The translations under genes were made by a program, and so were the position numbers. Shown here piece by piece: positions 650 through 61,464 of a stretch of 64,000 nt of DNA. The stretch covers positions 1,860,001 to 1,924,000 of the forward strand of contig NC_081334.1 in the NCBI RefSeq assembly GCF_022539665.2. Reading direction: 5' to 3'. How positions within the stretch are numbered: the first letter of the stretch is position 1; each line of letters starts with the position of its first letter. The DNA is from Daphnia carinata (lineage: Eukaryota). The notes beneath the pieces are model-generated. The model was not told where the DNA came from, made no database searches, and saw only the letters and a list, made by a program, of their open reading frames with translations.

Positions 650-2985
650 AAAGCAACTTTTAATTTTTCTGGCATCTACATTCACGCAAATATTGGATGA
701 AATTTCTTATTTAATAAAGTAACATTTATTTTAGCTCTTCATTCCAGGTTACTGACAATCTGCAAGCTGATCAACAAAGATGTTTTGTTACTACAGAGCT
801 TGATTTGCTTGTTGCAACAATTGATAACAGAAAATGACGATGAGGATGACGTTTTGGTGAATGTGATGCACTTGAAAGGTGACAGACAATTATGTCCCTG
901 TAACTAGTATGGCTTGGAATTTAGTTTTTTTCCCCCGATGGTTAGTACATCTATAGTTTCAAGATAATGAATAGATAGGTAAAAGGCTTTTATTACTTGA
1001 AATGCCTTATAATTAAAAATTACCATTTTCATACAAAATTAAGGCTACCTGTTCCAGGGATTGATAGTAGAAAGTGATGGTGAGGTTTTGGGGAGAGCAA
1101 CTTCCTTCAAAAGTTATTTTAAAAAATCAAGGTATAAAATATAGATATGAGTGTCTCACAAGCTATTGAATGTTTAACGGAAAAGGGATTTCTATTACTT
1201 GAAATGGTGATTCTAACAAAATACAATTTTTGTGCAGAAAGGTTTTCATGGAACAACACGCTGGTGAACGACTGACGAACTTGTCAACAAGTAAAAATAT
1301 TGGGTGCTACTAACGAATGAGTTTGCACAGTCAAAATGGGCTTGTAAAGAATGGATTGTTGAAGAAGACGATGGACTGTGGTGCCTTGGCGCTAAACACA
1401 CTGGTAGCCAGTAGATGGCGTGAAAATCCAATGACTGAAAGGCTAAGAGATGGCGTAGCAAGTCGGACGTGACCCTGAAAACCCAATAGATGGCGTAGCA
1501 AGCCGGACGTGACCCTGAAAACCCAATAGATGGCGTAGTAAGTCGGACGTCACCCTGAAAACCCAATAGATGGCGTTGCAATTTGGACGTGATCCTGAAA
1601 ACCCAATAGATGGCGTTGCAAGTCTGACCTGAAGCCGTAGCGCTATAAATGGCGTTACGAGTGTGCCCTGAATCCGTCACCCAACGGATGACGTTGCAAG
1701 TCTGACCTGAATCCGCCACCCAATGGATGACTTTGCAAGTCTGACCTGAATCCGCCACCCAATGGATGACGTTGCAAGTCTGACCTGAATCCGCCACCCA
1801 ATGGATGACGTTGCAAGTCTGACCTGAATCCGCCACCCAATGGATGACGTTGCAAGTCTGATCTGAACCCGAAGCCCAATGGAGTTTCAAGGCTGGCCTG
1901 TAGTCCGGCGCGGCGTTGCGTGCTGCCTTGAACCAAACTGAAATTCTTGGCCTTCGATGAATTTTCGGGTACTTCTTCACTTTGACAAGCTCAAGTTTTC
2001 TAGACTGATCTTATTTAATTTTCTTGACATAGGTTAGATGAAGAAAAGTAGTGAAATGGAAAATGTTCTGCGGAAATGTTGAATGTTCAGATTTGTAACA
2101 GCTGTGAGATGGATAATTTCACTGTCACACATCTTGGTATATCTTTTATCAATTGACTTAGTGTTGAACTTCTTGCAAACTCATTTCCTCTTGACTCATG
2201 TAGTAAAAGAAAGTGACACCGCATATGTAAATACCTTACATAGGAAAAGTCATCTGCGCTGTAGGATACAACCCTTTGTCTGTCTTGTAGATTTTTAGGT
2301 GCAGTTAGTTAAATGCTGTGGTAATGATAACTTACGCTGGCTGCCTAACATTCCTTAAGTTGAGTTTTATACTAATAGAAATCTCATGGTAACTAAATGA
2401 AACACTATTTCTTACGCCTACCATAGTTTTGCAGATACATCTGAAATGTCAAGTTTTGTTGAGGTCATCAATTGATACAATACCAACAAATTTATTTCAC
2501 AGTCGTGAAATGAGTAATGGCTAACATATCAATTATACCAGGTAAAGTGAAAACACTTGTAATCTTTACTTCGACGTAGCATTACAAGTAAAATTCACTT
2601 TGGGCTGTTAGAATGCAAATAATTTTTAATCTGTTGATGGGTGCTTAAAGAAATTTTCTTTGTGGTTTTTAGATATGGTGGAACTGATACTACAGTGACT
2701 GTTGGAAGGTGTTTCTGAGCATCATTTATCCCTTATGAAGTCATGACCCTGTATTGGCGTACCAATTCAATTGACAATGTCTTATATGTGAAAATAATGG
2801 ATAATTTTAACCAGTGGATGTGTGCCCAATGGTATTACTTGAAAGTAATTTGTAATTTATTTTTACAAGAACGGATAACTGTAAAATTTTTGCATTAATG
2901 CTTTTTGGCTTTGTAGGAAATGTAATTCCCTCAAACATGTGTGATCTACTGTATAGGTAATCAAAGCAATTTTTCTTCAGAGTGC
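650..2985 (+). repeat. Repeat module B, left copy (decayed spliced gene-like sequence with internal minisatellites)
   Basis: Colinear by-eye homology to the reverse complement of 61465-63600, e.g. 2918-2960 GGAAATGTAATTCCCTCAAACATGTG versus 61495-61540. AG/GT-bounded exon-like blocks are shared. Confidence 0.8.
1408..1880 (+). repeat. Tandem minisatellites: about 4 x 40-bp then about 5 x 39-bp units, each with a CTCF-like core
   Basis: Unit GACCCTGAAAACCCAATAGATGGCGTAGCAAGCCGGACGT recurs at 1471/1511/1551/1591. Unit GTTGCAAGTCTGACCTGAATCCGCCACCCAATGGATGAC recurs with a 39-bp period to ~1865. Confidence 0.95.
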
Positions 2986-3154
2986 TGAATTAAGTTCGTG
3001 TCATGAAAATGACTATGGAAAAATTTTTAAGTAACTTGAATTGGTGATTAACATGGTACTTTTTTTAAGGATTTTTTTTAGGAATGTTTTCAACAAAGGC
3101 AAAATATTTTTCAAGGGGTTACCCTTGGTTAATGTCACATAGTAGACAGAATAG

Positions 3155-3900
3155 GAATTTAATGTCACGTCAATGGTACATAACAGTATTTTAGTTCTAA
3201 AATGGCGGGCAAAAATTTCTTTGGGCCGTGTATTAAGTTATCTTATCAATGTTTAAATTAACGACAAACAAACGCTTAGGATTGAATTAATTCATTATGT
3301 TCGTATGTATAATTTTATTTTTAAAATATTTTGTGAGATAACTTCTGTTAAAGGAATATTTCAGACAGTGTAGAGGCAAAACATTGAATTTTCCATATAA
3401 TAGTAGTTTAGGAGGGTTCAATTGATACTGCATATGCCTTTCTTTTTGTAGACAACGAAGTTTTGTTTTACACTGCTAAAAAAATGAGTTATGCATCCCT
3501 TCACATTAATGTTAAAGTAGAATAACATTTACTTTCATATTTTATTCTAGGTTGCTGCCAATCTTTGCTAGCTGATCATAAAATGTAGTGTGGTTACATA
3601 GGTAGGTTCATCTTTCTGTTTTCCTGACAGAATGGTTCTCATTAGGTAAAGAAAAAAACATTTACTTATGAATTTTATTTCATAAGTTGTGGTCAATCTG
3701 CTAGCTGATTTATTAAGATTATTGTGACTACATAGCTTTGTTTGCCTGTTTCACGAACCGAAGAAACACGAAGTACGCTCAAAAGATGGCGTGGCAATCC
3801 AATGGATGGCGGCGCAAGCTTCGTCCGAAAACCAATAGATGGCGGAGCAAGCTTCGTCCGAAATCCAATAGATGGACTAGCCAACCATCCTGCAATTAAT
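3155..3900 (+). repeat. Second, partial module-B-related unit with a 33-bp minisatellite (3799-3880)
   Basis: 3165-3210 resembles 441-490 (CACGTCA..GGTACAT..TAGTTC.AA.ATGGCGG). 3370-3600 matches the reverse complement of 63660-63990. CCAAT(A/G)GATGG recurs with a 33-bp period. Confidence 0.7.
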
Positions 3901-4455: not shown

Positions 4456-6127
4456 CTGCGTTTCCGCTTGTAATTCAAAGATCATGAGGCAATTCAGTAA
4501 CGACAACTGTTTTGGAATTGGTATGATGGAACTCTGGTAGGAAACTGCAAGTTGTTTTCTTGCAGGAGTATTAAAATAACAAAAAACTTTTGAAACAGTG
4601 TCCAAAAAATGTTTGTGATTTACTTGTTTGTGATTTACTTTTTTGAATTACAAAGATGCTGAATTGCAAGAAAGTGCTTATATTGGAAGAGGAGACTATA
4701 AGGCACATACGTCGAATATTGATCGATTACTCAGGAAGGAACGATTTTAGTCTTACTCTTCTGCTGGATTATGGCATGCTACCAACATTTTCAGCTCACA
4801 CAGGTATCTGCTTAGCCTACTTAATAAGATGATCTTACTTAAAATTTTCATTCGTTACTGTAAATGCTACTACCATATCACTCCACAAACAAAACTGATT
4901 TGTGGTGTGATGAAATAAGCTGTTACTGTAGACTTTGGTCTTGGAAGTTTTCCAGACCTTACATCAGCTGTATAAGTGTGTTGGGTATTGGTGATAGGAG
5001 ATATTGAGTTTTGGAATGATATGAATGACAGGACAATCATTATAGAATCTTTAGACCAGCAAGCCATACTTTCAAACTAAAATTTTCTCCTTTGGCTTTA
5101 GATTTCTGTAATGGCTTTGCCTCTGATGATGTTCAATTAGGGCACCTTCCATTGACTAGTGCATGACAAATGAGCCTACACCTAACAACTTTGCATATTC
5201 TGCATGTCATTTTGCACTAGTCATTGGTGCATTCTTGTTGAACCTCATTTGTTGAAACTGTTGTTGAAACTGTTAGGATCAGCTGGTTGCGATTACATGA
5301 TATAGTTCATCGTCTGATAACAAGATCAGTTAATTAATTGAAATTGGAATGCAGTATATTTTTAATGGATCCCCTGTTTGTTATTAGATTTCGCAAGTCA
5401 TTGCAGCCGTTTCGGTGTTTGCGCTGCGTTCCACTTGCAGGATTTGTCGAGTTGCATTCAACAGCCGTCTTGTGAATGACGATGAGAACGTAAGCATCAG
5501 TGAATCTGATTACAGTCTGGCATTCGCTACTGATCTTTTACGAGTTAACAATCAATTGTTGATAACTTACGCCAATTAAGTATTTTCCCATATCAAAAGC
5601 AAGACATTCAGCTGTACTGGAAGGGATATCCAATTATTTTTTGCCTTCCGGCCGACCTGTAGCCCACCGTAGCTCATGCAGCAATTAATGGTAGGTTTTG
5701 GTGAAAGTTCGCCGGTCGTCAGATAAACTTATATAGTAGGTACATTTACTATTTCTCGTTCTTTGTCACGTTATACGGCTGCAAATTGATTCTCAGGTAT
5801 GACGTGTCTCTTGGTCTCATCTCGTTGCCTTGTATTTTTGCTTTTTATCGACAAAGGAAAAGAGAAGTTTGATTCTCGGGGCTGTGATGTACATGTAGAA
5901 AAACCAGGTAAGATAAGTCCCATTTTAAACAAAAATATGTAGAACACTTTTATGCTAGAAGAACTGTTTGATGTTGGTTGGATACGCGCATATGGAACAG
6001 CAGTGAAATCTTTCTTAAATGTTGAATCCAAATAATGTATTTTCCTCAATACTTAAATTTGTGAATAAACACCTTGTTCTGAAATTCCTGTTAGATTTAC
6101 CTTTATTTTAGTAATAAATAAAAAACC

Positions 6128-7014
6128 AGATGTCGCTGGTGCGCAACCTTATTTGTTTACTAATGATGTGTGACAGTGGTGTGACAAGTGAAACTTGTTT
6201 GAAAGCTTTGGTTAATTGTGTTATATTCCAACGGGCAGTTATGTAAAACTAACTACAATTATGTGACTTACTCCATGTATAGTTTTTGGAAGTTAAGCAT
6301 ACCAAATGGTTGATTTTTTATGTAACAGGTAATCTTGTAAGCTATGCAGGCTGCCAATTCCAAACAGTCATTGATTACCCTGTTAAATTACCTTAGCATT
6401 CCATCATGCTATTGTGTTGTTCATCGAGAGGTATCTAACTTGTATGTTTGCCATTTGTTAACCAATTGACATGATTCTACCTTTAAGATCTTGCTCGTGG
6501 AACTTGCAACGCAAAGGATGATAACCTGGAGGAAGGTTACCAATGTTGTGCATTCGTGGAATCAATATGCCACTGTCTCCTTCTGCCACACCTTACCCAG
6601 ATATAAGAATCAGTTTTGATCTGATAGATGCATTGTGTTTCACTTTGTTTTGTTAAAAACGGTTAGCCACCAGCACCTGCCAACACACATTGACATTGAT
6701 GTCAAACCAATCTCTTTTGGTATTTTAAGTTTTAGGCTAGCCTAGTATTGCTTTTCTTCAAATTTAGTATTCCATCGTAGGACTGCCAAGCCTCAGCCTT
6801 CTTCAGCAAAATTGGTTGCTCTACAATTCTTGCAGTCTTCACCAACAGTTGTAAGTAGAATGGCTGTCTTCGTTATAATTAAGCCAATAATCCTAAAACC
6901 CCATGCAGTGACATGTTTTCTTCAACTTTATCATTTAGAACCATTTCATCTTCTCCTTCAGTCCCACGCAAAATTGGAAATTGAAATCCTAAGTTTTGCC
7001 TGTCTTCGCTTCAT
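6128..7014 (-). pseudogene. Decayed ORF of unknown family in module A
   Basis: Both copies start ATGAAGCGAAGA. Stretch DSGILIPRMHNIGNLPPGYHPLRCKFHEQDLK versus DSGVLIPRIHFVGELPPGWHLFRCKFHKLDLK in the right copy shows several synonymous differences. Stops and frameshifts occur elsewhere. Confidence 0.4.
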
Positions 7015-7047
7015 GGTCCGTCTGCGCCTCGCTCGTCGCATTATCTT

Positions 7048-7335
7048 CGCCTCGCCCGTCACCCCGTCGTCGCCTCGCCCGTCGCCCCGTCGTCGCCTCG
7101 CCCGTCGCCCCGTCGTCGCCTCGCCCGTCGCCCCGTCGTCGCCTCGCCCGTCGTCGCCTCGCCCGTCGCCCCGTCGTCGCCTCGCCCGTCGCCCCGTCGT
7201 CGCCTCGCCCGTCGCCCCGTCGTCGCCTCGCCCGTCGCCCCGTCGTCGCCTCGCCCGTCGCCCCGTCGTCGCCTCGCCCGTCGCCCCGTCGTCGCCTCGC
7301 CCGTCGCCCCGTCGTCGCCTCGCCCGTCGTCCCGT
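7048..7335 (+). repeat. CpG-rich 23-bp minisatellite (CGTCGTCGCCTCGCCCGTCGCCC)n
   Basis: 23-bp period (7065, 7088, ...), about 12 units, essentially no A on the + strand. A degenerate counterpart lies at ~59760-59920. Confidence 0.95.
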
Positions 7336-7462
7336 CTACGCCTCACCGGTCATCCCTTCTTCGCCTCATGGTTGCCTCGCCCGCCATCCCGTCATCGTTT
7401 CGTGGTCGCCGTGTCTTCGCCTCGTTTTTTGGTATTGTGTGTGTTTTGTAATGTTAAGTATT

Positions 7463-7783
7463 AACTAACCCGTTGGCTGCCACCCCACCTTTTATCCCCT
7501 TTTTTTTTGTAGCTTGACAGGGACGGGCCGCGCTGTTCTGCGCCATGGTCTATCTGCCATGGGGTGGAGCAGCGCCACTGCCCAAAATTGGCCGAATGGC
7601 CCCAGGCAAGGCACCATAGGGAATCCCTTGTTCGAGACGGCGATGTAGACCTGGGATGTGCCTTTCCGGAAAGGTCTCATCGCCGTTTCAGCCCGGACTG
7701 TCCTCAGTCCCACTTGGTCGCTATCCCTATGATAGCGACGTAGCGACCGTAGTTTAGATGGCGTGGCAGCCAACGGGTTAGTT
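7463..7783 (+). ncRNA. Candidate structured RNA (IR-bounded, multi-helix, pseudoknot), copy 1
   Basis: Perfect 21-bp IR at 7463-7483/7763-7783. Internal helices have G-U pairs on the + strand and compensatory changes relative to copy 2. Confidence 0.6.
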
Positions 7784-7920
7784 TTAAGTGTATTTATGTA
7801 TGTATTGTATGTTGTATTATGTGGAATATGTATAGTGGTGGATTTGTGGGTGGAAGGAGGGAAAATAAAATGCTTTGTAACATTATTTACTTTTTGCATT
7901 TATTTATATAGTTGTTTTAT

Positions 7921-8353
7921 TGACTGATATGGGGATCGAACCCGAGTACTATAGTATGCTAATCAGTAGCGTTGCCATTATGCCATCTATTACTTGTTGT
8001 TTCATGATACGCATTCCATAATAACCTAATGTCGAACTTAGTTTAACATACGCATCAAAATCTAAACTAATGTTTATGAGGACAGTCTTGGCGCAATGGT
8101 AGCGCGCTGTGCTGGAATGCGATAGGTTTGTGGTTCAAATGCATCACAATTTGAAATTGTCTCACTCTTGAAAAGCGTGAGAAAAGTCTTCGTGCAGCAT
8201 CAATGTATTTTCGATTAAAATAATTTTTCATTTTTTAGGATATTCGACATTACAAGTAGGTTGTCGGAAACAATCCGTGAGTGGAACATCTGGGAATTGA
8301 ACCCTAGAAATTCAACTTCTTAAGCCGATGCTCTACCACTGAACTATATCACA
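7921..8353. promoter_or_regulatory. Three tRNA-like Pol III A/B-box units (-,+,-)
   Basis: Minus 7921-7990 (TGGCATAATGG / GGTTCGATCCC); plus 8082-8153 (TGGCGCAATGG / GGTTCAAATGC); minus 8281-8353 (TAGTTCAGTGG / GGTTCAATTCC). Acceptor stems do not pair. Confidence 0.7.
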
Positions 8354-8639
8354 TGTTTTAATACTACTATTACTAATAGCGAACGTAGGAATAAGATTTG
8401 GACTTAGAAAAAAAAAGCAAACTCCTTTTTCGTTGCCTGACCATTCACTGGCTCAGAACATCGAAGCAAAGACCCAGGCCACTTGCCTTTACGAATACCA
8501 ATACCTAATATCCTGAATACCTTTTTATTTTTCTCAGAGGGATGTCTTTCCAATGTTTCACATATTGTACATCAGTTGTAGAGAAAAATCCCTTTTTCTC
8601 TAGCGCGTACAAGTACAAGTTTTTTTTAGCATCATGCTT

Positions 8640-8678: not shown

Positions 8679-9929
8679 TATGTATATAACCAAACATACA
8701 ATTTAACTTAAAAATCACGTCCAATAACTTGGGACCTTACGGCGAATTAGGAATGATGAACAATACAATGAAATTGCAAATCAGCTCACCCCGCCAGTTC
8801 CAATAAATGAGGTTTGCAGAAACAATGCAGAATATGGCAGGTGTTGAGGTGTATAAGGCTCATTTGTTGTGCACTAGTCAACGGAAGGTGCCCTGATTGA
8901 ACGTCAGAGGCAAACCCATCAAAGGGGAAAATTTTAGTTCGAAAGTATGTGTTATTTGTCTATACATTCTCTGCTTACTCTAGTTTGTCCTGTCACTGAT
9001 ATTATTTTAAAACTCAATCAGTCCTATCACTAATACCTTACGTACTTTTACGGATGATTTTAAGTCTGGAAAACATCCACATCTACAGTGACTGCTATTT
9101 CATCATATCACAAACTGTTTTTGCCTGCAGAGTGATATAATCTTAGCATCTACACGAATGAAGAGAATTTTAATTAAATTACTCAATCTTATTGATAATG
9201 CTAGGCAGTTACCTATGAAATCGGAAATGTTGGCAACATGCCACATTTCAACAGAACTGCAAAGACCGTAGTCATCCATTCTTGAGCAGTCCATCAATAT
9301 TTCTACATGTACGCCTGATTTTTCTCCTTACAAGAAAAGCTTTGTATTTGCCACTGGGCAAATAAGCTATTCACACATTTGGTTTTCACTTTGCATGTGT
9401 TTAGATTTATGAAAATAATATTAACACCTAATGGCCTCTGTATAAAATGCTGTGTTATTCTTATCATTCTGTACAGAAAAACTTGCAATATCATACCTGA
9501 ATTCCAGAACAAATTGTGTTTATTGAATCAACTTGCGATTTTTGTGCTTCAAGCAGAAACATGGCCAGGTATCTTGAACCAAGTAAACGAAGATGACATC
9601 AGATACTTGCAAACACAACCGTGGAATGATACAAATGACGCAAGTGCAAGACAGAATGAGCGACTACCCCACAGGTAGTTAGACTGGCACGTGTTAGAAG
9701 AAAAGTGAAACATTCATCAAGGCGTCGCTTGAAGTATATGCCAACTGTAAAAGTTTTAGCTTTTGTTGCAAATGTATCCAATTTCTACAGAGTTTAACAC
9801 CAAGAAATCCATTGTCAGTTTTTTTAAAAATTGTGATAAAACTGAGTTCTTTCAGGGATTCCTGTGCTTCCTTTTGATGTTCAACTTTGTGCAAATCCTT
9901 TTTTTTTCTTTTTTTAATAACGTAAATAT

Positions 9930-11177: not shown

Positions 11178-13632
11178 ATGGCAGCCTCATTCTATCTAAA
11201 AGGCAACAGGATGAGCTATCTTTGGTGTATCCCAAACTCTCGTTTCAGTAGGCAGTGTGCTACTGTATCCAGTGTCACGCAACACCCAATCTCATCGGTA
11301 AGAAATGAAGAAATGGTTACCATTTTCTAGTTAATGCATGATCATCTAATTGTATTATGCAATTGTGATGCTTGTTTAAAACTTTACTATTACTGTTAAT
11401 AACTCAGTCTATATTTGCAGGCAATTAGAACTTCCATTTTTGAAAATAAAAAAATACTTCCATTTTCTTCGTTTTTAACTGATTCATATGGTAGACAACA
11501 TAATTACCTTAGAATTTCCTTAACAGAGAGATGCAACCTGAGATGTGAGTAGAAATGTATGATTTCATCTACTGGTCTTATTATTATTAGTTGCAAATTT
11601 TCTTGTTTGTTTAGGCCAGTATTGCATGCCAGCTGGGGGTGTTGACTTGACTGCTAAAGATAAATTACTGTCTACTACAGAAATTGTAAAAATTGCATCA
11701 GCTTTTGTAGAAGAAGGAATAGATAAAATAAGGTTGACTGGTGGGGAGCCATCTATCCGTCCTGATATTGTTGAGCTTGTTGGTAAGCGTATTTTTTTCC
11801 CAATTAAGAAAAAAACACATTCAATTTTACAAATGCTTGCATTTTAGGGCTGCTGAAAGCATTAGATGGTTTGAAAACCTTAGCTATGACTACTAATGGA
11901 TTACTTTTAACAAGAAAATTATCTGCTATGAAAGAAGCTGGTTTAAACATGCTTAATATCAGCCTTGACACACTTATACCAGCCAAGTTTGAGTTTATTA
12001 CGCGTAGGAAGGGACTTGAAAAAGTTCTTCAAGGTATTGATCTTGCTTTGGAAATGGGCTACGATCCAGTTAAGGTAGTCTTTTTGCTTTAAGTTTTATA
12101 ATTACCGCTTTAAAAAATAACGTGATATTTAAATTTAGCTAAACTGTGTCGTGATGCGGGGACTGAACGATGACGAATTACATAGCTTTGTTGAACTAAC
12201 CCGCGAAAAACATATTGATGTACGCTTTATCGAGTACATGCCTTTTGAAGGAAATAAGTGGAACGATAAAAAAATGGTACCTTATCACGAAATGTTAGAA
12301 ATTATTAAACAAAAATACTGTGACTTACGGCGCATGGAAGATGCCGCCAATGACACATCGAAAGTAACAATATCCAAATTGTTATAAAAAAATTATTTTG
12401 ATGCTAAAATTTCTTTCACGCTATAGGCCTATTTCGTTCCTGGATACCGCGGAAAAATTGGTTTCATAACATCCATGTCAGAACACTTTTGTGGATCCTG
12501 TAATCGTTTGAGACTCACTGCTGATGGTAATCTTAAAGTGTGCCTTTTCGGAAATGCTGAGACCTCACTGAGGTATATTATTATTTTCGTACACTGTGCG
12601 TGGTATCTTGTGATACTCCTTATCTCCTAAAGAGACCTGTTGAGGAATGGGGCAACAAAAGAGGAACTGATTACTGTTATCGGCCAAGCGGTTGGACGAA
12701 AGAAAAAGCAGCACGCCGGTACCGTATTAGGGATTTCGTTTTGCACACATCACAGAACTTAACTTTTACTTATTCATTCAGGAATGTCCAATTTACCTTC
12801 GATGAAAAATCGCCCTATGATTTTGATCGGTGGGTGAAAACCGTCTTTTCTAGGTAGTTTGCATAAGCTTTTCAACATTAACTTACATTTAGGTGACTCC
12901 AATAGTGTGTTGACAGGGAGTATATTAGCCATGGGTTCCATCCGTCCTTACTGCACCGATAGAGGAGACCACTTCAGCAACCATGACGATTACCTTGATG
13001 ATCCGTGGACAACGTACAGAAAAACGCATGCATCTTTGCTTCAAGCATCTTCGTTTTTTAACGTCTCTACTCGAAGAACCAACCTATCTCAAGAAACACG
13101 TGAACACCCCACTCAAAATGCAAACGACCAAGCTAAGTTGACTCACGTCGATCTTCACGGGCAGGCTAGAATGGTCGATATAACTGAAAAGCCATGGACA
13201 ATTCGGCGGGCTACTGCGCAGGCTGTCGTCTGGATTGGGCCTGAGGCATTTCGTTTAGTAGATGAAAATCTGATTAATAAAGGAGATGTTCTTAAAGTTG
13301 CCGAAATAGCAGGCATCACCGGTGGCAAGTTGACTTCACAGTTGATCCCTCTTTGTCATCCTATCTCTCTTCATCAACTGAGTGTTCGCTTATCGCTGGA
13401 CTCAAAAAATAATTCTGTTATAATAGAAAGTAATGCTGTCACGCATGGTCCAACAGGGGTCGAAATGGAAGCTCTGACGGCCGCGTCAGTTGCAAGCTTG
13501 ACAATAATTGATATGGTGAAAGCAGTGACAAAAGAAGCAGAAATACGTAATCTCTATTTGGTCAGTAAATCGGGAGGAAGTCGAGGCGACTTTAAGCGTA
13601 CCAACAATGACAATGTGCCATTCCCCTGTTAA
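11178..13632 (+). CDS. MOCS1: Molybdenum cofactor biosynthesis protein 1: MOCS1A (GTP 3',8-cyclase, radical SAM; stop 12837) plus MOCS1B (MoaC-like; stop 13632)
   Basis: Spliced [20 protein letters not shown] (CxxxCxxC), [16 protein letters not shown], and C-terminal NRPMILIGG*. The downstream ORF has LTHVD..G.ARMVD, LIPLCHP and [12 protein letters not shown]. Confidence 0.96.
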
Positions 13633-16201: not shown

Positions 16202-19088
16202 TCACTTGACTCGCTTTTGTTGTCGTTTCCGGTAAATATCGTTTGGTGGTGGTCCACCTTGAGATCCACTAATGGCGACCGGCTCCTCATCTTCAGATTC
16301 TTCTCCCATTCCTCTCTTTTTTGTGGGACGTTCAACACCCGCATCTTTCGGAAGCCAATGAACGCTACGAGCAATGTCAAATAATTTTGCGTTGTCTGTA
16401 GTATTCGCGAGCAAAGAACCTAAGTAAATAAAAACATTTTTAGTTTTATTCAAAAGGTATGTTATACTATACTTTTACTTGTTTCACTTATATTCAAATG
16501 CTTAATTAGCTCCATTACTGGATCGACTACAACAAAAGGCCCATGGAAGCAATGTGGAGGGGGTAACATTCCGCACAGCTGAGAAGCTGCAGGTGGTAAC
16601 GGAAATCCTCCTCCTGCAAACACACAAATTTAAAGGTAATTGTCAACTTAAAGTTTATAACTAGATTTAATACGAATTTTACCCGGCGCGATGTGTTCCC
16701 CTGGTGTCCACTGAATTTTGGGTTTGAAAGGTACCATTTGAGAAAAGTCGGGCTTGTACATTGTAACGTCTGCTGCCTCAGTGTTTTGTTTTCGATTTTC
16801 CTCCTCTCTGGCAAGAAGATTTTTAGCACTTTGGCTGCTGCTAAGCTCTGCTACTTCATAGTAGCCCAACGCTCTTTAATAAGCATACATTACAATGTTA
16901 AAATCAATAGCTTGAAATTTAACACTATCAGAACAAACCTTAGGTCTGCAGTTGAACAGGGAAAGAGGGTTCCAAATCTATAACGATCAATCAGGAGGGC
17001 TGTTTCTTTGCCTTCCAATTCCTTGAGCTAAAATGCAAATAAAAACAATCGAAATGAAACAAAATGCAGTTTCATGTGGAAATCTACCTTATCGAGGACC
17101 GCATTGCGTCTTTTTTCTACTTTCACTACACTAGAAAGATCGCCAATAGAAGACTCAAACTCGAGGAAGCGGTTCCAGATTTCTAATGAATTTTCAGGAG
17201 AGAGCGAGCCAGATGATAGGATCCGTTCAAAAAGAACTCGAGTGTTGTTATCTTCGTTCAGCTGCGTTAAGAACTCAACATAGGCGAGTAAATAGTCGGG
17301 CTGATGTTTAAATCGTTTGAGGCCTAGATCAAATATCTTGAAGGCGATATTTTTATCCTTGGTACAGTAATATTCCATCAAGGCAGCGGCCACAAAAACA
17401 TGGCTTGAACAGCGGGGGTCTTGACGTGATCTCTTAAACACAAGCCGGGCAGATTTGATTCCTTCTGCTCTTCTCGCAAATCGCATGTACTGAATGTAGC
17501 CCTATGAATGTTACCAAATTAACGTAAACATATTATGGTAACAAAACAAGGGAGAATTACCAAGGTTGGGTCAATGTCATGCTGCTCGAGGTATTTCGTA
17601 TAAATTTGATGAGCTTTGTCATACTTAATTCGCCCCTCTTCGTAATCGGCATAAGCGAAGTAGAGTAGGCTGTTATGGGACATAGGGCCATTAATCGAAC
17701 GCTCATAAATATTGGACACTTCCTCAGCTAGGCTCTTGGCAGCCGTCACATCCTAAATTACATTGAAATGAAACTACGATCATGAGAAGCTAAAATTTTA
17801 TCTTACCCCTTTATCTGACAAAGTTTTGGTGCTTATTTGAAGAAAGAGGGCAGCTTCGTACCAAACATGAGGGTGGTGTCCTAAACACAGAAGACACTGT
17901 TCGAAAGCAAACATAGTCCGCTTTGTAAGTAACGACTGGTCTTCGGTGCGGAGAGGATTAGATTTTTCCCAGGTCAAATATTTCTTCCACAGTTCCACTT
18001 GTTTGATTTGCTCCGGGTGGTTGGATGGAGGAGTTGAAGGCATGGCTTTGTTAAGTCCGCGTGTGCAGGCTTCTAGCTCTTTGGCAACTCTTCTGGCATT
18101 CATATAGTCACGGCTGCGTTCCTGTATAACAAAGTAAACGTGGGTAATAGGATTGGACGGCAATATAGAGCCGATTCTTGCTATTGGGAAACTTATCTTG
18201 AATTTCTACAGTGGCAACAATATGCTGAATAGTTATTTCTAAAAAATAAATAGTATGAAAAAAAAACAGTTCTTTTTTCCTAATACTATTTTACTTTTTT
18301 TTTTCATAATGACAATATGTAAAGCAATATTTTTTGAAGATTATTCTTAGCTACTTTATTTTTAAAAAATTACCTGTTGCATTTTTTCTGCAATCATGGG
18401 GTTTATGGCTAATTCATATGCAATATAGTCCTTCCATAGTTGTTCAATATTGAGCATAGGCGTAATCACACCTCTTTGGTAGACTTTTCTCACAGCTGTG
18501 ATCCTTTGATTCTCAGCATAAGAACCCACAGCTTCAACATTACGGAGAAAATGAATGTAGTCATTCCAAATGCTATAAGATTGAATATCCATTCCAACTT
18601 TGTCCAGAGTGAAATCATAGCACTGAGCAATTTTTTCTCTGAAATTATGACAGGATTAACACTAAACATATGAACCTGTATTCTGGTTAGAGCCATCATG
18701 CATTTTATACCTGTAGTTGGGTAAAGCACTTTTAGTTTCCTTAACATAGTTCACATAGAGTTTCCAGAGTTCTATATTTAAAACCTTGATCAAGCAGCGT
18801 TGAAACAACTGCAAAACAAAACATGAGTGTGAAAATTTGTGTAACAAATGAATGCATGCAAATTTTTACCTTTTCGACTTTGTCGTAATTCCTTGCACGC
18901 ATTTCTTGCTCTATATACATTTTCCAATAACGACCTGATGTTGGGAATTGCGCTACCAATCGTTCAAAGTAAACTCGGGCATCGTCAATCTTGCGTATCT
19001 GAGCCTCACGCAGAATTTGACCCCAAGCTTCTAAATCAAAAGGGTTGGTTTCTATGGCCTTTTCGGCTCTGGCTAATTTATCAGCCAT
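16202..19088 (-). CDS. CSTF3: Cleavage stimulation factor 77 kDa subunit / suppressor of forked
   Basis: HAT repeats: [62 protein letters not shown]-terminal [16 protein letters not shown]. Confidence 0.96.
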
Positions 19089-19361
19089 TATTACTATTCT
19101 TTTTTATGTACTCTAAAAAAATTGTTTATAAATTCATTAACCACGTTTTCTACAGTTCCATTCAAAATCACAAACAGTCAGGCATCTCAACCTGACAAAC
19201 AGCTTGGGGAAGCATCGTCTGCTGCTATACTTCTCCATCTAGGTTCCACCTTAGAAACTTCATTCGAAGCAGTCGACTGTTCAATATGACAGCAAGAATC
19301 CGGCAATATTACAGGCAAACGAATTCATAAGCAGTAAAAAATCCAAGTTGTTTTGCGAGAA

Positions 19362-28045: not shown

Positions 28046-29791
28046 ATGCGAGCGTCACGTTGCTTGGAGATTTGTTGCATAATATTACTGTATTCTCAGA
28101 TATGTATTGCTGCCAATGATTTACAAGGGCACCCTGTTATTTTAGGTAAACAATTTTTAAATTAACACATCTAAAAGAAAATGGAAACTAAACTGAATAA
28201 ATGTTTATTATTATAAATTAGTGCCAGGTGATGGAGGAAGTCAAATCGAAGGGAGACTTGATAAACCTACTGCTGTGCATTATGTTTGCTCAAAGAAAAC
28301 TGATTACTGGTTCAGCTTATGGCTAAATATGGAACTTCTAGTTCCGATTGTTATTGATTGTTGGGTTGACAACATGAAGTTAACCTATGACAACACTACC
28401 AGGAAAACTACTAATAATCCTGGTGTAGAGATCAGAATTCCTGATTTTGGTAACTCAACATCAGTTGAATGGATTGATCCAAGTAAAGCATCAGCAGGAA
28501 ACTATTTTGCCACAATTGCTGAATCTATACTTAAATTTGGCTATGAAAGAAATGTTTCACTGAGAGGAGCTCCATATGATTTTCGCAAAGCACCAAGTGA
28601 GGATTATCGTACTAAATCGGTTTTTATTATGTTTTTACCCATGAAATTTGTTTGGAATTTCAGACGAACTTCAAGATTATTTTGTGAACACCAAAGCACT
28701 TGTGGAAGATACTTACAGCAGAACAAATGGGCAAAAAATAATATTTATTACCCACAGCATGGGATCTCCAATGATTCTCTACTTCTTAAATCACCAGACC
28801 CAAGAATGGAAAAATAAATACATTAAATCATGGATCTCTTTAGCTGGTTGTTGGGCTGGCACTATCAAAGCCTTGAAAGTTTATGCCCAAGGTTTGTTAA
28901 AAACATTAATAGATGCTTTTTAATTTGGCTTTGAAAAACTGTTGCATTTTATTTCAGGCGATAACCTGGGCGTGCGTGTACTCAGCGAAACTGCACTGCG
29001 GGAGCAGCAAAGGTATTTCATATCAAAACTCTTTTTCTAAAAATTTATTTCAATTGTACCTTTCTTTGTATTCCAACCAACTAAAGAACTAGCCCGAGTT
29101 TATCTTGGTTGATGCCATCCGACAAACTATGGACACCGGAGGAAGTGATGGTCCAGACATCAGGACGAAATTACACAATTCGAGATTATCAGGACTTCTT
29201 CCTGTAAGATACAACGATCGCGCGATGTCTTGTATTCGTCTTGCTAACAATTCTTGTTTTCTTGTCTTTTTGGACACAGAGATATTGATTTCCCGTTGGG
29301 ATATGATATGTGGCAGGACACGCATCCTTTGGTACACGAATTGACAGCACCAGGCGTGGAGATCCATTGCATAGTATGCTAGCTTGTCTACAACTTTGTT
29401 GTATCTGTCCTGTTTTGCATTCATCTTTTATTTGTTATTTACTTTATAGTTTGGAACAGGTGTGGATACAGCTGAGCGACTAGTGTACAGTAAATCATCA
29501 CCCATTGGGAAAGCTACAATCATTATGGGTGATGGCGATGGCACCGTCAATGTTCGTAGTCTAGCCGCATGCAGCAAATGGATCAAAGAGCAGTCACAGC
29601 CTGTCTATGTCCAGGCATTCCCCAATAGAGACCACATGGCTGTGCTTTATGTAATTTTTTCTCTATCAAATTTTGCCTTCATTGCTCGTAAGTTTATTTG
29701 TCTAATATTATGACAGGATCCAGTCATTTTAGATTACATTCAACGAGTTGTCACTGCCAGCCAGGAAGAGGAGGCGGTGCGTAAAGCGTAA
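28046..29791 (+). CDS. PLA2G15: Group XV (lysosomal) phospholipase A2, LCAT family
   Basis: Signal peptide, HPVIL-VPGDGGSQ, LRGAPYDFRKAP, THSMG nucleophile, GDGDGTV, DHMAVL. Confidence 0.93.
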
Positions 29792-49806: not shown

Positions 49807-50642
49807 TTACACACTTTTTTGGCTTGGAAATGTGTAACAGTTTGTTGGGCTTGTTAACACATCATTCTCAATTGACAGGTCATCAAAATCTGGTCCACAT
49901 GCCCATAATGTTTCAAGATCATAGATCTTTCTGAACTTACTGGAAAATATGTGAAGGGCAATGTTACCTAGATCTAAGGCAATCCAATCTTTGTTGTTTT
50001 TTCCTTCTATAACTGGCAACAAATCTGTTGTCAAACAACGTCTCTTTGATAATTTTCTTAGAAATTCTGCAACAACAATAAAAAATTGTCAACTCATCAC
50101 TTAACTGATGTCATTAATTCAATACAAGTACCAGCAACTGCAGTCATTTGTTTAGGAGACTTCCCTGTGGTAATCACCATGTAATCCACATAACTTAACT
50201 GTGAAGGAACAGCAATTACAACTATATCCTGCAGCTTCTGTTGGTTCAAAATTTCAACAAACTCCTCTATATCAAATATTCCAGTGGTTCCACGCTGTAA
50301 TGAAATTCCTTGGAATTCATCAAACTCTTCAACTATTTCTGAATCACCAATCCTTTGCCAATTGCCTTCAGCAAACATTTTTTCTTCTTCTGATTTGTTT
50401 TCTACTAGTTCTGTAGTATAGCTTCTTTGGAAATTGATATTTGTTGGTGAAGAAGACGGAAATAACAAGGCCCTTGCATGCCGGTCAGCTGTATGGCAAA
50501 GGTTTCTTTCAACGCACGTTTCATTCAAAATTTTGGAAGCTATGCAATGATTATTTTGTTGATATTGAGAAGTGCGCATGAAATGAGACTTGTTAAACAA
50601 TTGTTTTGTTAAAAGAGCTCTAAGTGAGCATTGGCGCCACAT
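49807..50642 (-). CDS. MALSU1: Mitochondrial assembly of ribosomal large subunit 1 (RsfS/Iojap family)
   Basis: RGTTGIFDIEEFV, YVDYMVITTGKS, DWIALDLGNIALHIF...YDLETLW, and a basic N-terminal presequence. Confidence 0.93.
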
Positions 50643-51144
50643 TTTTTACACAGAAGTTTGGCTGAATCACTGAAAAATAGCAGACGGAAGTTAATCTTTC
50701 CTTGTGCAGACGACATGGAAAAGAACAAAATAAAACAAATTGACTAGTCATGTCGTGTTTCGAACTCCCAGTCATGTATTTTTCATTCCTATAGCTAGTG
50801 CATAATTATAGTGAACGAAGTTCAAACTAACAATTTAGATTAGATAGTACACCCTTAAAACAAAGTAAAAAAAAAGAATTCATATAGTTTGCACCGAGTA
50901 AAATTGTTGTGACACTATCGCCCACTGTCAAGCTAACCTGCCAAACGTTAAGTTCCAACAAAACTTGGCAATCTAGATTACAATCTAATTACCAATTACC
51001 CCGAAGAACAAAACTTTTTCTCGTGTGTTACAGCGTACTATAAAGTAGTTGCTACTAATCAATTTATACAGGCATTTTGAGTTAACTCTGTTTTGAAATT
51101 TGAACCGTAAGAAGGATATAGCAAAATCAAACATCCCTCAAAGA

Positions 51145-56346: not shown

Positions 56347-59300
56347 ATTTTACGTAAGGCGCCAGTTCTCTGATTTCAAAGATCATGGTCAACAGAACAA
56401 ACACCCTATTTTCGGTCATACCTTCTATAAAATCATGTTTGCTTTATTCGCGTGTTTGTCGTGCATGTGATACTGCCTCTCTTGGCGCCAGAGAACTCCG
56501 TAGCATTCTCATGATGTAATTTTCATCGTTCAAGTTTCGTTTAGCAGAAATAAGGAAGATCACTTTTTCTAATAAAAAATATAAATAAAAAAAATTATAT
56601 CTATTTCTTGTCTGTTAAAGATGCAATGAAAACGTTTTGACGAAAAAGGGATACCCAATAGGGATATTAAAACATTTCATTTAAAGTTTCTCGTAATGAC
56701 CGTTGCGTCCACAAGAGGCGCCTTAAACCGTGGCTCATAGGGTAGTTTTTTTTTTGTCATACATTCCTAAATTTGCTTAACGCGTGCAGTCCGCTGTCTG
56801 CTTTCCTCGCTAGATTTTACCTCTTGACCTCGTGTTAGTTGCGATTTTCGGCAACAAATTTACTCATTTTTCAATGCTGTTCAAGGTACGCTAGGAGAGA
56901 AAAGATAAAAGCTATGCTTAACAACTTAAAAGCTTTAACAGGGTTTAAGTTTATTACAAAACCTAGAAGTGTCGTGAAGCACATGGGTCAGGAATATCAT
57001 CGGGATTTCGACTTACCTTGGTAGGTGTGTATTGTGTTTTTCAATTTCCACTTGCACACCGTAATCTGTGATTACTAACTAGTGAATCATTAGAGGATGT
57101 TAATTTTTGGAACCTAAAGCACCTTCGCAAGCTCCCGAGAATCAAGTCAAAACATATAAGTAATTGAAAGATTAAGATTTTAGCATGGACATTAACCATC
57201 CATCATTGTTTTGGTCTCTATAAGGTAAATTGTAGACTGTTTTGTTCTAATATGAATTTTTCTGTCCAGGGCACTTAATGTCTGACTTTCCATTACAGTG
57301 GAACAATTACAGCTAGTACTTACAGTAGTTACAACACATGAACAATATTGAAGCTTCTATAAAAAATGCAATAGCATTCACAAGGGAGTGGGTTCATAAG
57401 GACTGGCAAATGTTTTGATTTTGCCCTTGATCTAAGGAAGTTGTCTTTCAAACGGTAATGTGATGTCTTATGGGCACCATGTATAAAAAATCTTCATCAG
57501 CATTCCAGAAACTTCTTCACTGCAGCAGTTATCCTTTGGTAATAATCAAAAATTCTATGCATTTACTGAAAGATCCAGGAACGATTGCTACAGGAACATG
57601 TATGAACACTCAAAATCAGGTGTGATTTTGATCTCAACTCCTTTGGTCCTACATTATTAATGTCTTTTGGGTTAAAAAAGCTACGCCTGAGAAACTTCCT
57701 TAAGGAATAACATTAATGGTATTACTTTCTTTCATTTACAATTGGTTTCTAACTTCTAAGGTGCCACCAGCCAACTCAACAACCAGAGGAGTGCTAGACA
57801 TTTGCGGGTGAACGTGAAAATAGTTGACCGCCTGTTAATTGTAATTCCGATTTTGCTTAAATTTTTATTTTCGATGGTGCATAGACATAGTTGAGTTGCT
57901 GGTAATTGTAATAACCATCATCCTCTGTTAAGTCTTTCAAAAATCGTAAGACCTATTAAGGTATAATTTTTCTGAGAACATTAAGAACCATCTTTGTTTC
58001 CTTCTAATATTTTTTTCTCTAGGTTACTTAATGTTGGTAATTTACATTACGCCAGAAAATACACCAGCAGTCAGCCACCAGGCACTAGGTTTACGAGTAC
58101 TACCTTGCCTTGCTAAAAGTGTTAGGTTTCCCTAGGATCTGCGTAACCGTCAACGTGTTCGACTGACTGTCTCCGATTACGTATCTGCTGAAAGGTAATA
58201 TGTCGTTTTATCGGACATACAAGCTAAAGAAATAAAGTAAGATAAAACGGGGGGGGGTTATAAATTATAAAATATGCTTCTCTGTTTGGGCTGATGCGAC
58301 TTGACTTTATTCGACGGAACATGCCATTTCGATTGTGCTGATGGTTCGTGTTTATGGTAAAACTGGCGCATCTTAGCTGATTACCATTCTTCCTTAGACA
58401 ATGTCTGGTTTCTCACTCGTCCTTTATTTCTCACAATCCCTTTCGGACAGCATCTAGCATGAGAAACTTTAACAGGGGAAATAGATTATCCGCTAATTTC
58501 TCTGGGATACTTTCAACGTGTTTTATACTTTTTTATTCTATCGTTTGACTGTAAGGACTGGCGCAGAAAACTAATGTTCTTTTTTTGTCATTTTCTTTGT
58601 TAAATTGGTATAAGCACAAAGGGCACATAGGTGCAAGCGATACCGAACCGCTTAGGTTTTAAATGCAAATTACTATGTCCTGTGGTTTTGAATCATTATA
58701 TGGCCGCGTATTTGTATGTTGTACCGTGTATTTCAATGGGAATATCTATGTTTTCGAATAAACAATTTGTTCCCTAATTCATTTTTGATTCGTTTTGATT
58801 GTAGTTGTAAAAAAAAAACTAGATGTCGCTGGTGTGCTTCCAATATGGTGTTGTGAATACGTGTGACAGTGGTGTGAGCAGTGAAATCTGTGTTTGAAAG
58901 TTTTTGTTAAAAATGTTTTATTCCAGTGGAAAGTTATAAAAAACTAACTACTATTAAATGTTTTATTCCCTGTGACGTTTTTGGAAGTGAAGCACACTAA
59001 ATAGTTCATTTTTTACGTACCGGCAATCTTGAAAGCTATCAATTCCAAACAGTGACAGATTGCTCTGCTACAAAACTTTGACCGTAGCATTCCAACATGC
59101 TACTCTGTTGTTCTTTTTAGAGGTATTTTACTTGTACAAGGCGCTTAGTATACCCTTTGGCATGATTCTGACTTTAAGATCTAGCTTGTGAAACTTACAA
59201 CGGAAAAGATGCCAACCAGGAGGAAGTTCACCAACGAAGTGAATTCTTGGAATCAATACACCACTGTCCAATTCGCCTACCCTTTGCCCTAGTCATCAGA

Positions 59301-59981
59301 ATCAGTTTTATTCTGATAAATGCAGCATGTTGCTCTTTCTTTGCTTTCCAACAGTTAACCACTATCAATCAACACACACAGACATGGACATCAAAACCAA
59401 TCCCTTTTGGTATTTTAAACTTGAGATTTATCTAGTATTGCTTTTTAAAAATTTAATTTCCCATTGTAGGGCTCCCAAGCTTTCAAGTTCTTCAGCAAAA
59501 TTACCAGCCCTGCAACTTTTGCAGTCTTCAAACAACAGGCTTAGGTAATTGTTTTCCCTGTTATAATTACACCAATAATCTTATATTCCACATGTAGTGA
59601 CACTTTTTCTTCATATTTATTATTTAGTACTATGCCATCAGCTTCATTCCCATGCAAAATTGAAACAAAAATTCTAAGTTTTGCCCGTTCTTCGCTTCAT
59701 CATCTGTCGTCACCAGGCTTTTCGCCCTATCCGTCGCCCAGTCATCGCTTCACCCTTCGCCCTGTCTTCGCCTCGGCCGTCTCCCCGTCGTCGCCTCGCC
59801 TGTCGCCTCGGCCGTCTCCCCGTCGTCGCCTCGCCTGTCGCCTCGTCCGTCGCCGTTTCGTCGCCTCGTGGTCTCCCCATCTTCGTCTCGCCGGCATCCT
59901 GTCGTCGCCGTGCCAGTTGCCCCTTGGTCACCTTGTCTGCGTGGTATCGTTATTTTTTTTAATGTATGTAATGTATAATGT

Positions 59982-60301
59982 AAACTAACCCGTTGGCTGC
60001 CACCCACCTTTTATCCCCTTTTTTTTTTTTAGCTTGACAGGGACGGGCCGCGCTGTTCTGCTCCATGGTCTATCTGCCATGGGGTGGAGCAGCGCCACTG
60101 CCCAAGATTGGCCGAAAGGCCTGTAGGCAATGCACCACAGGGATTCCCTTGATCGATGCGCTTGATGAGACCTGGGGTGTGCATTCCCGTAAAGGTCTCA
60201 TCATCGTGTCAGCCCGGCCCCCTGGCCCCCTTTATCGCTATCCCTAAGATAGCGATGTAGCTACTGTAGTTAAGATGGCGTGGCAGCCAACGGGTTAGTT
60301 T
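59982..60301 (+). ncRNA. Candidate structured RNA, copy 2
   Basis: Perfect 22-bp IR at 59982-60003/60280-60301. Same helices as copy 1 with covarying pairs, plus a GGCC-GAAA-GGCC tetraloop hairpin. Confidence 0.6.
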
Positions 60302-60419
60302 TAAGTGTATGTATGTATGTATTGTATGTGTATTATGTAAAGTGGTGGATTTGAGGGTGGAAGGAGGGAAAATAAAAAGATTTTAAATTATTTATATTTG
60401 TATTTATTTTATTATATGG

Positions 60420-60814
60420 TGACTGATTTGGGGATCGAACCCAAGGAATCTCACACGCTTATCACGTGCTTTACCATCAATCTAACCACTATTCATTAAC
60501 TATGAAAAAGCTATCCCATAATAACCTTGTATAGAACTCATTTCAACATACCCATAAAAATCTAAAGTTATGTATGAAAGGAGTGATGGCACAAAGGTAG
60601 CGTGCTGGACTGTAGTGTCGAAGGTCTGGGGTTCAACTCCCAGGCCGGGTGCTATTGCTGATACGACCACCGATAAGCGCCCCAAAAGTTTCTGATCGCC
60701 GAGGAGAAAGATTTTTTACATTTAAGGGCGTTTTGTGTGTCATGGCGACTCTGAGTATTGAACCCTTGACCTTCGGCTTCTGAAGCCGATGCTCTACCAC
60801 TGAGCCATTTCACA
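60420..60814. promoter_or_regulatory. Three tRNA-like Pol III A/B-box units (-,+,-), copy 2
   Basis: Minus TAGATTGATGG / GGTTCGATCCC; plus TGGCACAAAGG (60587) / GGTTCAACTCC (60630); minus TGGCTCAGTGG / GGTTCAATACT. Confidence 0.7.
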
Positions 60815-61464
60815 TATTTTAGTACTACTATTACTAATAGCGAATGTAGGAGTAAGATTTGGACTTAGAAAAATAAAAGCAAGCTGCCCTTTCGTTCACA
60901 GACCCTTTCATACACTGGCTCACTACGCTGAACGCTTACCTTCCTTTGCCTGTACATCACTTGGCTCAGAACATCGAAGCCAGAACCCAGGCCGCTTGCC
61001 CAATATAATTTTTTTCTCTGACAGATGTTTTTCAATTTTATCAGATATTGTACATGAGTTACAGAAAAATCCTAAATTTTTCTCTAGGGTATTTTCTACA
61101 GTACCGACAGCCCTTTTTCGTTTCTTCTGTCATTCGCCTGTGACGACGCTGACAAATTTTTCGTCGACAGAAAATTTGTGCATTTGACATGAAATTACAA
61201 ATACAGCAAACAGAAAATAACCGTCTTATTCGTTATTTTCTATTTTTTACAACCAAACCCACACACATGTTGTATCTGTATATATAATTTGACTATATAC
61301 ACATGGTTTAGAATGGGAGACAACAATAAGATGTAAATATAAATAATGTGTTCTACTAAGCTCTCAATTTCAGAAGAATGGAAGAAAAGAAAAAAATTAC
61401 TGATTACTCACGCGCAAAAAAAAAGTCGTTTCCAGAGCAATTCCAGTTGTAAGCAGAGAGAAGA

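Follow-up and report, generated by a model that had tools for sequence, protein, structure and literature searches.

To our knowledge, animals have few large RNAs whose pseudoknotted fold covaries (RNase P/MRP RNA, telomerase RNA, SRP RNA, 7SK RNA and a small number of ribozymes), and animal lncRNAs seldom show convincing covariation. RNase P RNA is described from arthropods in a setting of particular relevance here: the Daphnia pulex genome contains ten RNase P RNA-like genes, and crustacean copies lie in different recipient genes of RNA polymerase II (Pol II) (PMC4287351, in excerpt). In Drosophila, protein protects the RNase P RNA while Rat1/Xrn2 and the exosome trim it (PMC6797745, in excerpt). 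A second described system consists of mobile elements: the target of piggyBac is TTAA, and mPok1 and mPok2, the Pokey MITEs of Daphnia, are about 750 bp long with 12- or 16-bp ends (PMC3849761, in excerpt).

Here we describe a structured element that occurs twice in a stretch of 64,000 nucleotides from Daphnia carinata (contig NC_081334.1, positions 1,860,001 to 1,924,000, forward strand; the window). Judged from sequence comparison, its fold is conserved beyond chance and under selection on the + strand. No relative of this fold is catalogued; in a model crustacean, paralogues conserve it although their host exons drift, and the core is small enough for direct transcription, probing and assay. 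We favour, at a little short of an even chance, the explanation that these 320 bases are a protein-bound non-coding RNA in the last exon of multicopy, spliced Pol II transcripts.

The element lies within a duplicated module, module A, both copies of which are on the same strand:

6063-8603, + strand: module A copy 1, a non-coding host unit with its flanks, in pieces 73-83% identical to 58756-61087
58756-61087, + strand: module A copy 2, in pieces 73-83% identical to 6063-8603
7463-7783, + strand: structured core, copy 1, from folding, with its helices checked in three copies
59982-60301, + strand: structured core, copy 2, from folding, with variants from other runs

The two cores are identical at 282 of 315 aligned bases (89.5%), as against 690 of 905 (76%) upstream of them, in agreement with an earlier note on this DNA, which had called the core more conserved than the rest of module A. 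That note had also treated the conserved core as closed by an inverted repeat; the repeat is present, but conservation continues past it, with 96 of 103 aligned bases (93%) identical between the window copies at 7784-7900, just 3' of the core.

The window consists of a gene-dense block (about 9.3-56.4 kb) with repeat-rich ends on either side. Host genes between the copies include MoaC (12838-13632), suppressor of forked/CstF3 (17028-19103), an LCAT-like gene (28197-28817) and an RsfS/MALSU1-like gene (50097-50645), and the conserved exon at 17031-17498 matches a Daphnia magna cluster at 99% identity, with no more than 96% to other branchiopods. The word AGATGGCG, which we take to resemble CTCF and YY1 sites, occurs 23 times in the window against 0.97 expected. 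Fourteen of these occurrences fall within 1413-1615, 3784-3844 and 62633-62939, mostly in 33-40-base tandem arrays of another duplicated module (675-2986 versus 63566-61462, inverted), and the arrays stand on either side of the gene-dense block in a boundary-like arrangement. A 350-base element with long, near-perfect inverted ends (88-438), unrelated in sequence to the core, is probably a separate MITE. A 500-base inverted duplication without a Pfam match (4715-5205 and 8825-9301; 71%) surrounds module A copy 1, and AGATGTCGC, conserved near the left end of both module copies (6128-6136 and 58821-58829), may mark a promoter or insulator.

A third copy was sought with a gapped two-arm pattern in metagenome contigs, which gave two loci. 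One of these, L001, is a third full copy, 67% identical over the core and 3' flank; the other, L002, was dismissed as a chance match. L001 has the core and 3' signal in common with the window copies, and its upstream sequence is unrelated to module A: the exon-intron-like sequence that precedes the core there (260-470) suggests a cassette behind different host exons. L001 begins, by eye, with a tRNA-like piece. The full-length set comprises three sequences (the two window copies and L001), two of which are 89% alike; the core is 320-345 bases long across them, with sequence divergence of up to a third. We found no further core copies in the window and metagenome loci using nhmmer with the three-copy profile. 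Pattern scans for the core gave 0, 6 and 0 loci in viral contigs, the six being chance matches of 17-22 bases, and 0 and 0 loci in prokaryote genomes; BLAST of phages and plasmids with the core gave no match. Full-text literature searches returned no description of the element by title or start of abstract; subscription journals, Repbase or Dfam entries, figures and supplements, which lay outside their scope, may list it as a repeat.

Contigs from public runs aligned to 431 bases of the core in large numbers: 61 from run X1, 128 from X2 and 98 from X3, with none from X4. X1 derives from organism A, which may be close to the window's own source, and some of its contigs are identical to copy 1; X2 and X3 derive from organism B and belong to one study. 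Some loose ends of X1 contigs resemble decayed copies. Summed contig depth (about 2500-3600 over the X2 and X3 3' arm versus 25-35 for contigs of 6-8 kb) hints at tens to hundreds of copies; we set it aside, as a depth sum is no copy number. The missing X2 and X3 cover beyond 7874 was not used as evidence.

The core is closed by a long stem, P1, followed by a pyrimidine-rich tract:

7463-7483, + strand: 5' arm of P1, 21 bp perfect with 7763-7783, holding a CUAAC that resembles the branch-point motif as generally known
7763-7783, + strand: 3' arm of P1, pairing with 7463-7483
7484-7520, + strand: pyrimidine tract and two YAG (7510-7512 and 7518-7520), resembling a 3' splice site, in all three full copies

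The earlier note had reported a perfect closing repeat of 21-22 bp; we found 21 bp in copy 1, 22 bp in copy 2, and 25 bp in L001. The inner 18 pairs of P1 are invariant in the three full copies, and two outer pairs change on both sides. Changed pairs thus number 2 of 21 in P1 versus 23 of 66 in the other helices (p 0.009). This greater constancy suggests that the letters of P1 are themselves read, beyond pairing alone. With the inverted repeat included, copies 1 and 2 fold with z-scores of -9.6 and -11.4; the interior alone still gives -5.5 and -5.4, with 0 of 100 shuffles as stable, indicating that the fold signal is not merely that of an inverted repeat. Three other readings of the stem were rejected. 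A 7-codon frame filling the 3' arm (ATG at 7758, stop TAG/TAA) lacks its A in most of the contig depth of X1, X2 and X3, and loss of that A also removes the YY1-like AGATGGCG at the 7758 frame. The 3' arm holds a word like a 5' splice site, from which back-splicing might start, but L001 lacks the word and no such joint was seen. A fixed alternative fold upon loss of the 5' arm was dropped too, as the three copies then fold differently.

Inward from P1 and the pyrimidine tract lies a domain bounded by helix P2, followed by two hairpins and a tentative third. The P2-bounded domain holds, in order, a 20-bp hairpin, a tetraloop junction, a pseudoknot strand, a 4-bp hairpin and an 18-bp helix, the loop of which supplies the partner strand:

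7524-7528, + strand: 5' strand of P2, a 5-bp helix closing the pseudoknot domain (partner 7691-7695), invariant in all three copies
7530-7575, + strand: P3, a wobble-rich hairpin of 20 bp, with pair changes from copy 2 to L001
7580-7607, + strand: small junction with a 3-bp helix (7580-7582/7605-7607) and a tetraloop hairpin (7590-7601), with loop variants
7608-7614, + strand: 5' strand of the 7-bp pseudoknot (3' strand 7658-7664), with 7 of 7 pairs in all three copies
7618-7628, + strand: 4-bp hairpin between the pseudoknot strand and the long helix, its stem invariant, its loop varying in sequence and length
7634-7689, + strand: P5, an 18-bp helix whose loop carries the 3' pseudoknot strand (7658-7664), its lower 12 pairs kept
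7696-7709, + strand: P6, a hairpin variable in length and sequence, from folds, with other versions in contig loose ends
7717-7739, + strand: P7, a 9-bp hairpin with both-side changes in 4 of its first 6 pairs

All seven helices of the earlier note, along with the inverted repeat, were recovered where it had placed them, several with amendments. P2, its first helix, is present but shares G7695 (G60216 in copy 2) with its fifth, so one of the two is a pair shorter. P2 is the same in all three full copies and so gains no support from covariation; the same invariance is seen in the 3-bp helix of the junction and in the 4-bp hairpin, and in the copy 1 fold the 5' strand of P2 can pair alternatively with 7580-7583. 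For P3, the hairpin and its G.U pairs stand, but its length is 20 bp rather than about 19, with one G.G mismatch in copy 1. From copy 2 to L001, P3 has 11 unchanged pairs, 3 changed on one side, 5 changed on both and 1 broken, and among the P3 variants listed in public runs all five, taken singly, keep + strand pairing. The tetraloop is GAAU in copy 1 and GAAA in copy 2, as previously noted, and also GAAA in L001; in organism B it is UUCG closed by C-G. The swaps claimed for P5 were confirmed in its lower 12 pairs (G.U/U.G and C-G/U-A), but the helix requires a bulged base at 7646; its upper part is rebuilt with other letters in L001. P7 shows an extra U-A to C-G change, with both partners altered within one X1 contig.

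The pseudoknot is the only 7-bp helix common to all three copies among 178 free columns, and 0 of 1000 column shuffles gave one. Its support across the three copies consists of one both-side change and one G.U change: the note's double compensatory change reduces to a single both-side pair between the window copies, although the pseudoknot itself is kept. A minority T>C variant at 60131 (51 of 198 depth in X1, 168 of 9939 in X2) may break a pseudoknot pair, and no partner change for it appears among the 40 of 70 differences listed.

We assessed covariation across the 64 named pairs on a sequence-only alignment (MAFFT) that was not fitted to structure. These pairs were 98.4% paired, and 12 of the 64 changed on both sides, compared with a mean of 4.0 in shuffles, none of which (0 of 500) reached 12, and with 0-2 in slid controls; these shuffle nulls ignore relatedness, and the set is three sequences, two of them closely related. 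The covariation that the earlier note had reported between two copies therefore extends to L001, an out-of-sample third. Similarly, in hand registers from copy 2 to L001, which for L001 lean towards structure, 62 of 87 pairs were the same, 8 changed on one side, 13 changed on both and 4 were broken. Outside P1 there were 11 both-side changes and 4 broken pairs, versus 2.1 and 20.3 when the same 36 substitutions were placed at random. We excluded the upper P5 pairs of L001 from these counts because they are fitted, not homologous, and the variants at 60158-60166 were left out of pair counts because they may be alignment shifts, their partners lying outside the rows listed.

The earlier note had left open whether the fold, which it saw as selected and carried by a repeat family, acts as RNA or as single-stranded DNA; the fold and the repeat family stand, and + strand RNA is favoured. 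The helices contain 5, 7 and 10 G.U pairs in the three copies and no A.C pair, and the interior of L001 folds with a z-score of -2.3 on the + strand and -0.4 on the - strand. GNRA and UNCG tetraloops are stable RNA loops, and swapping among them is an RNA trait. The G.U pairs and the GAAA-to-UUCG loop swap point to + strand RNA, and L001 also contains a UACG hairpin closed by C-G. Were the fold instead a signal for replication or priming in an element with a single-stranded DNA stage, rolling-circle or otherwise, the introns kept in the copies would fit spread at the DNA level, and DNA folding is indeed stable (z -9.7 and -5.8, inverted repeat included). We nevertheless consider this role unlikely and give it a very small probability: numerous G.T pairs have been retained or newly formed, the loop exchanges are among stable tetraloops of the RNA type, the L001 DNA centroid loses most interior helices, the element precedes a conserved poly(A) signal, and the flanks scanned contain no HUH or helicase match.

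The core sits near the 3' end of what appears to be a transcript unit:

6431-6487, + strand: intron 1, GT..AG, 57 bases, absent from 3 X1 contigs, of which one has 0 differences; copy 2 retains the splice sites
6720-6780, + strand: intron 2, GT..AG, 61 bases, skipped by 1 X1 contig
6851-6938, + strand: intron 3, GT..AG, 88 bases, skipped by 1 X1 contig; the last exon starts at 6939
7018-7367, + strand: C-rich 23-nt tandem repeat of 15.6 units, in the last exon and 5' of the core (copy 2: 6 units, 59731-59868)
7784-7869, + strand: UGUA-rich tract, purine-rich stretch and AAUAAA (7864-7869; 60371-60376 in copy 2), a poly(A) signal by consensus

From the intron-less X1 contigs we infer spliced + strand RNA, although an intron-less DNA copy would look alike. 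The joined exons contain no reading frame common to both copies, and 39 of 39 frame reads from module A and its repeat-rich flanks gave no Pfam family at cut-off. Identity between the module copies is 76.6% in exons and 75.2% in introns, with 1-base gaps and no third-position bias; exons that lack a frame and diverge like introns indicate a non-coding host unit. The unit thus has the character of a Pol II lncRNA, non-coding for want of a conserved frame and spliced insofar as the X1 joints are RNA. One X1 contig joins the C-rich repeat to the 5' arm (7308-7507). The 23-base repeat is nearly free of A and differs in unit number between the paralogues; it could be a platform for proteins that bind C-rich RNA. 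On the 3' side, AATAAA follows the stem in all three full copies, and UGUA words number 6, 7 and 6 in 69-80 bases, compared with about 0.35 expected. The window copies keep their introns and no A tail follows AATAAA in any of the three, indicating that the copies multiplied as DNA; a retroposed element (SINE or retrozyme) was rejected for the same reasons. Further 3' of the poly(A) signal lie three degenerate tRNA-like pieces in alternating orientation (7931-7950, 8087-8140 and 8281-8352 in copy 1; 60431-60450, 60585-60640 and 60743-60814 in copy 2), one called tRNA-Leu by ARAGORN and another called by Rfam, which are SINE remnants or B-box sites. The last-exon setting, the poly(A) signal, the splice-site-like tract within the stem and the piggyBac-like ends of L001 were all absent from the earlier note.

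The tract within the stem raises another reading, in which the core is a portable last-exon cassette: by burying a branch point, the stem would mask a 3' splice site just inside the 5' arm and so switch splicing and poly(A)-site use. CUAAC or UUAAC, an AG-free pyrimidine tract and two YAG occur in all three full copies, with no AG from the CUAAC or UUAAC to the first YAG; the tract is conserved in character rather than in letters, the upstream exons of L001 differ, and in organism B variants two adjacent substitutions leave the second YAG in place as UAG. However, none of the joints listed falls at either YAG, the observed joints use the acceptor at 6939, and X1 contigs traverse the site (59935-60083, 59972-60060 and 59983-60160). 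In addition, the branch point would sit 38-45 bases from the first AG, and the pseudoknot domain would be left unexplained. We consider this reading quite unlikely.

The ends of the element bear on a further alternative, namely that a non-autonomous DNA transposon of piggyBac type supplied the arms as its terminal inverted repeats and that the interior is RNA cargo, serving the element or later adopted by the host. piggyBac ends start with CCC, and L001 reads TTAA then CCC at its left end and GGG then TTAA at its right. MITEs typically combine invariant arms with an interior that diverges, variant contigs are many (the 128 of X2 and 98 of X3), Daphnia does carry piggyBac MITEs (mPok), and terminal inverted repeats are present at 21, 22 and 25 bp. 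In contrast, TTAA stands at both ends in only one of the three full copies: the window copies have CTAA on the left and TTAG on the right, which are mutually complementary and no direct duplication, and pairing extends beyond that position. The expected unrelated insertion sites were not seen either. The 3' flank is common to all three copies as far as AATAAA, the 5' flank is common to the window copies, and the contigs of X1-X3 run on into the same 3' flank; flanks common between copies indicate that these are not independent insertions. The flanks scanned have no transposase match in Pfam, and a search for a decayed transposase in module A, on either strand, gave none above noise. We regard a transposon origin of this kind as unlikely.

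We compared the core with known RNA families. The earlier note had recognised none, and the Rfam 15 covariance-model search agrees, the core staying below gathering cut-offs. The one Rfam 15 hit in the window is tRNA-like and outside the core; the core itself gave matches only far below cut-off, with none for twister, pistol, hatchet and others to E 10 in the window copies or E 5 in L001, whose two weak hits both lie outside the core. A hammerhead core comprises CUGANGA and GAAA around three helices; it occurred in none of the three copies on the + strand and in one on the - strand, where it is not conserved. HDV-like ribozymes have a nested double pseudoknot (P1-P2-P3-P1.1-P4) with a catalytic C. 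Our own descriptor for these, which had no positive control, gave no match on six strands and Rfam was negative; we also rejected this class because the P5 loop is too small for an HDV-like P3 and P4. In RNase P/MRP RNA, CR-I and CR-V form helix P4, and this signature had no match on six strands, again with Rfam negative. Patterns for group I/II introns, 7SK and SRP found nothing in the core copies. An ENE is an internal loop with U-rich strands on both sides; by that measure the copies offer a single U-rich strand with nothing U-rich opposite in the folds. Both window copies have internal runs of 9-12 U, and a B box pattern occurs in only one of the three copies; together, the U runs and the lack of a shared B box exclude Pol III on the + strand, and with it Pol III RNAs such as 7SK, SRP, Y and vault, for which Rfam was negative too.

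With these classes set aside, the pseudoknot domain might still belong to a ribozyme class not yet described, excising itself from the host transcript or processing it. Self-cleaving RNAs are often carried in animal repeat families, and the domain is compact, with a pseudoknot, a GNRA or UNCG loop and short invariant junction letters. Its invariant purine-rich junction bases are few, however, a canonical poly(A) signal already provides a 3' end, and the hammerhead (+ strand), HDV-like, group I/II and Rfam ribozyme searches were negative; we think a ribozyme improbable.

Equally improbable, in our view, is a dsRNA mimic akin to adenovirus VA RNA, in which the stem would be diced to a fixed small RNA or would sequester dsRNA-binding proteins. 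Dicer products are about as long as the 21-25-bp closing duplex, whose letters are invariant. The wobble-rich 20-bp hairpin and central pseudoknot are features also of VA-I (PMC6599070, in excerpt). Against this, the core is twice the size of VA RNA (about 160 nt), Pol III is excluded as above, and the viral contigs and phages searched contain no relatives.

We return to the explanation that we favour, a protein-bound non-coding RNA in the last exon. Pol II would transcribe the unit and splicing would join its exons, as the intron-less X1 contigs suggest; the transcripts would probably be polyadenylated, the other exons likely being mere carriers. Since P1 is more invariant than pairing alone needs, a protein is predicted to bind the closing stem sequence-specifically, and the pseudoknot domain is predicted to be the binding or active core. 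Exonucleases would then trim the carrier back to the protected stem, by analogy with insect RNase P RNA, or the carrier would be tolerated, and the resulting RNP would be the functional unit. Selection across many paralogues is explained by the element's own spread as easily as by a host function. It is possible, although we hold it to be doubtful, that the element represents a new class of large animal ncRNA: a closed, pseudoknotted machine of 320-345 nt with a catalytic core or that of an unknown RNP, present in many crustacean copies behind interchangeable non-coding exons and possibly derived from piggyBac-type transposon ends. The novelty applies to fold and family, and the mechanism may prove to be of known type. 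A core that is catalytic, or that of an RNP, would add a class of RNA not seen before; should the arms derive from former transposon ends, the element would show how a structured RNA gene arises from a DNA transposon.

Compared with described systems, the core shares features with several. The mPok elements are likewise short and repeated, with inverted repeats at their ends, and L001 has TTAA at both ends; the core differs in its size (320-345 versus about 750), its 21-25-bp arms, its common flanks, the lack of a direct duplication in the window copies and its covarying fold, the comparison covering length and arrangement. The Drosophila roX lncRNAs are also Pol II non-coding transcripts of arthropods, with repeats and fast turnover around focal conserved structures, but they occur as one or two genes per genome and have repeated stem-loops in place of a pseudoknotted closed domain, and the core has no link to dosage compensation. 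VA-I RNA has a terminal stem as well as the long wobble-rich hairpin and central pseudoknot (PMC6599070, in excerpt), whereas the core is a cellular repeat in a Pol II setting, larger, with three more hairpins and a pyrimidine tract, and without a sequence or Rfam match to it.

Telomerase RNA is similar in size, pseudoknot and closing stem; the core does have a 7-bp pseudoknot, though one whose short helix lies on the 5' side of the long one. The telomere repeat of Daphnia is TTAGG (PMC4427308, in excerpt), and the core has no conserved single-stranded template for it: no 7-base template word occurs on any strand, and the 6-base CUAACC lies in P1 and is altered in L001. The full-text literature searched gave no telomerase RNA for Daphnia.

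Finally, the RNase P RNA that insects and crustaceans carry within Pol II transcripts resembles the core in its length of about 300 nt, its pseudoknot and terminal stem, its Pol II hosts and its several Daphnia copies with different host genes (PMC4287351 and PMC6797745, in excerpt). The core, in contrast, lacks CR-I, CR-V and an Rfam match, and its pseudoknot joins other parts of the fold. Arthropod RNase P RNA is intronic, whereas the core is exonic, lying downstream of the last acceptor seen and upstream of AATAAA.
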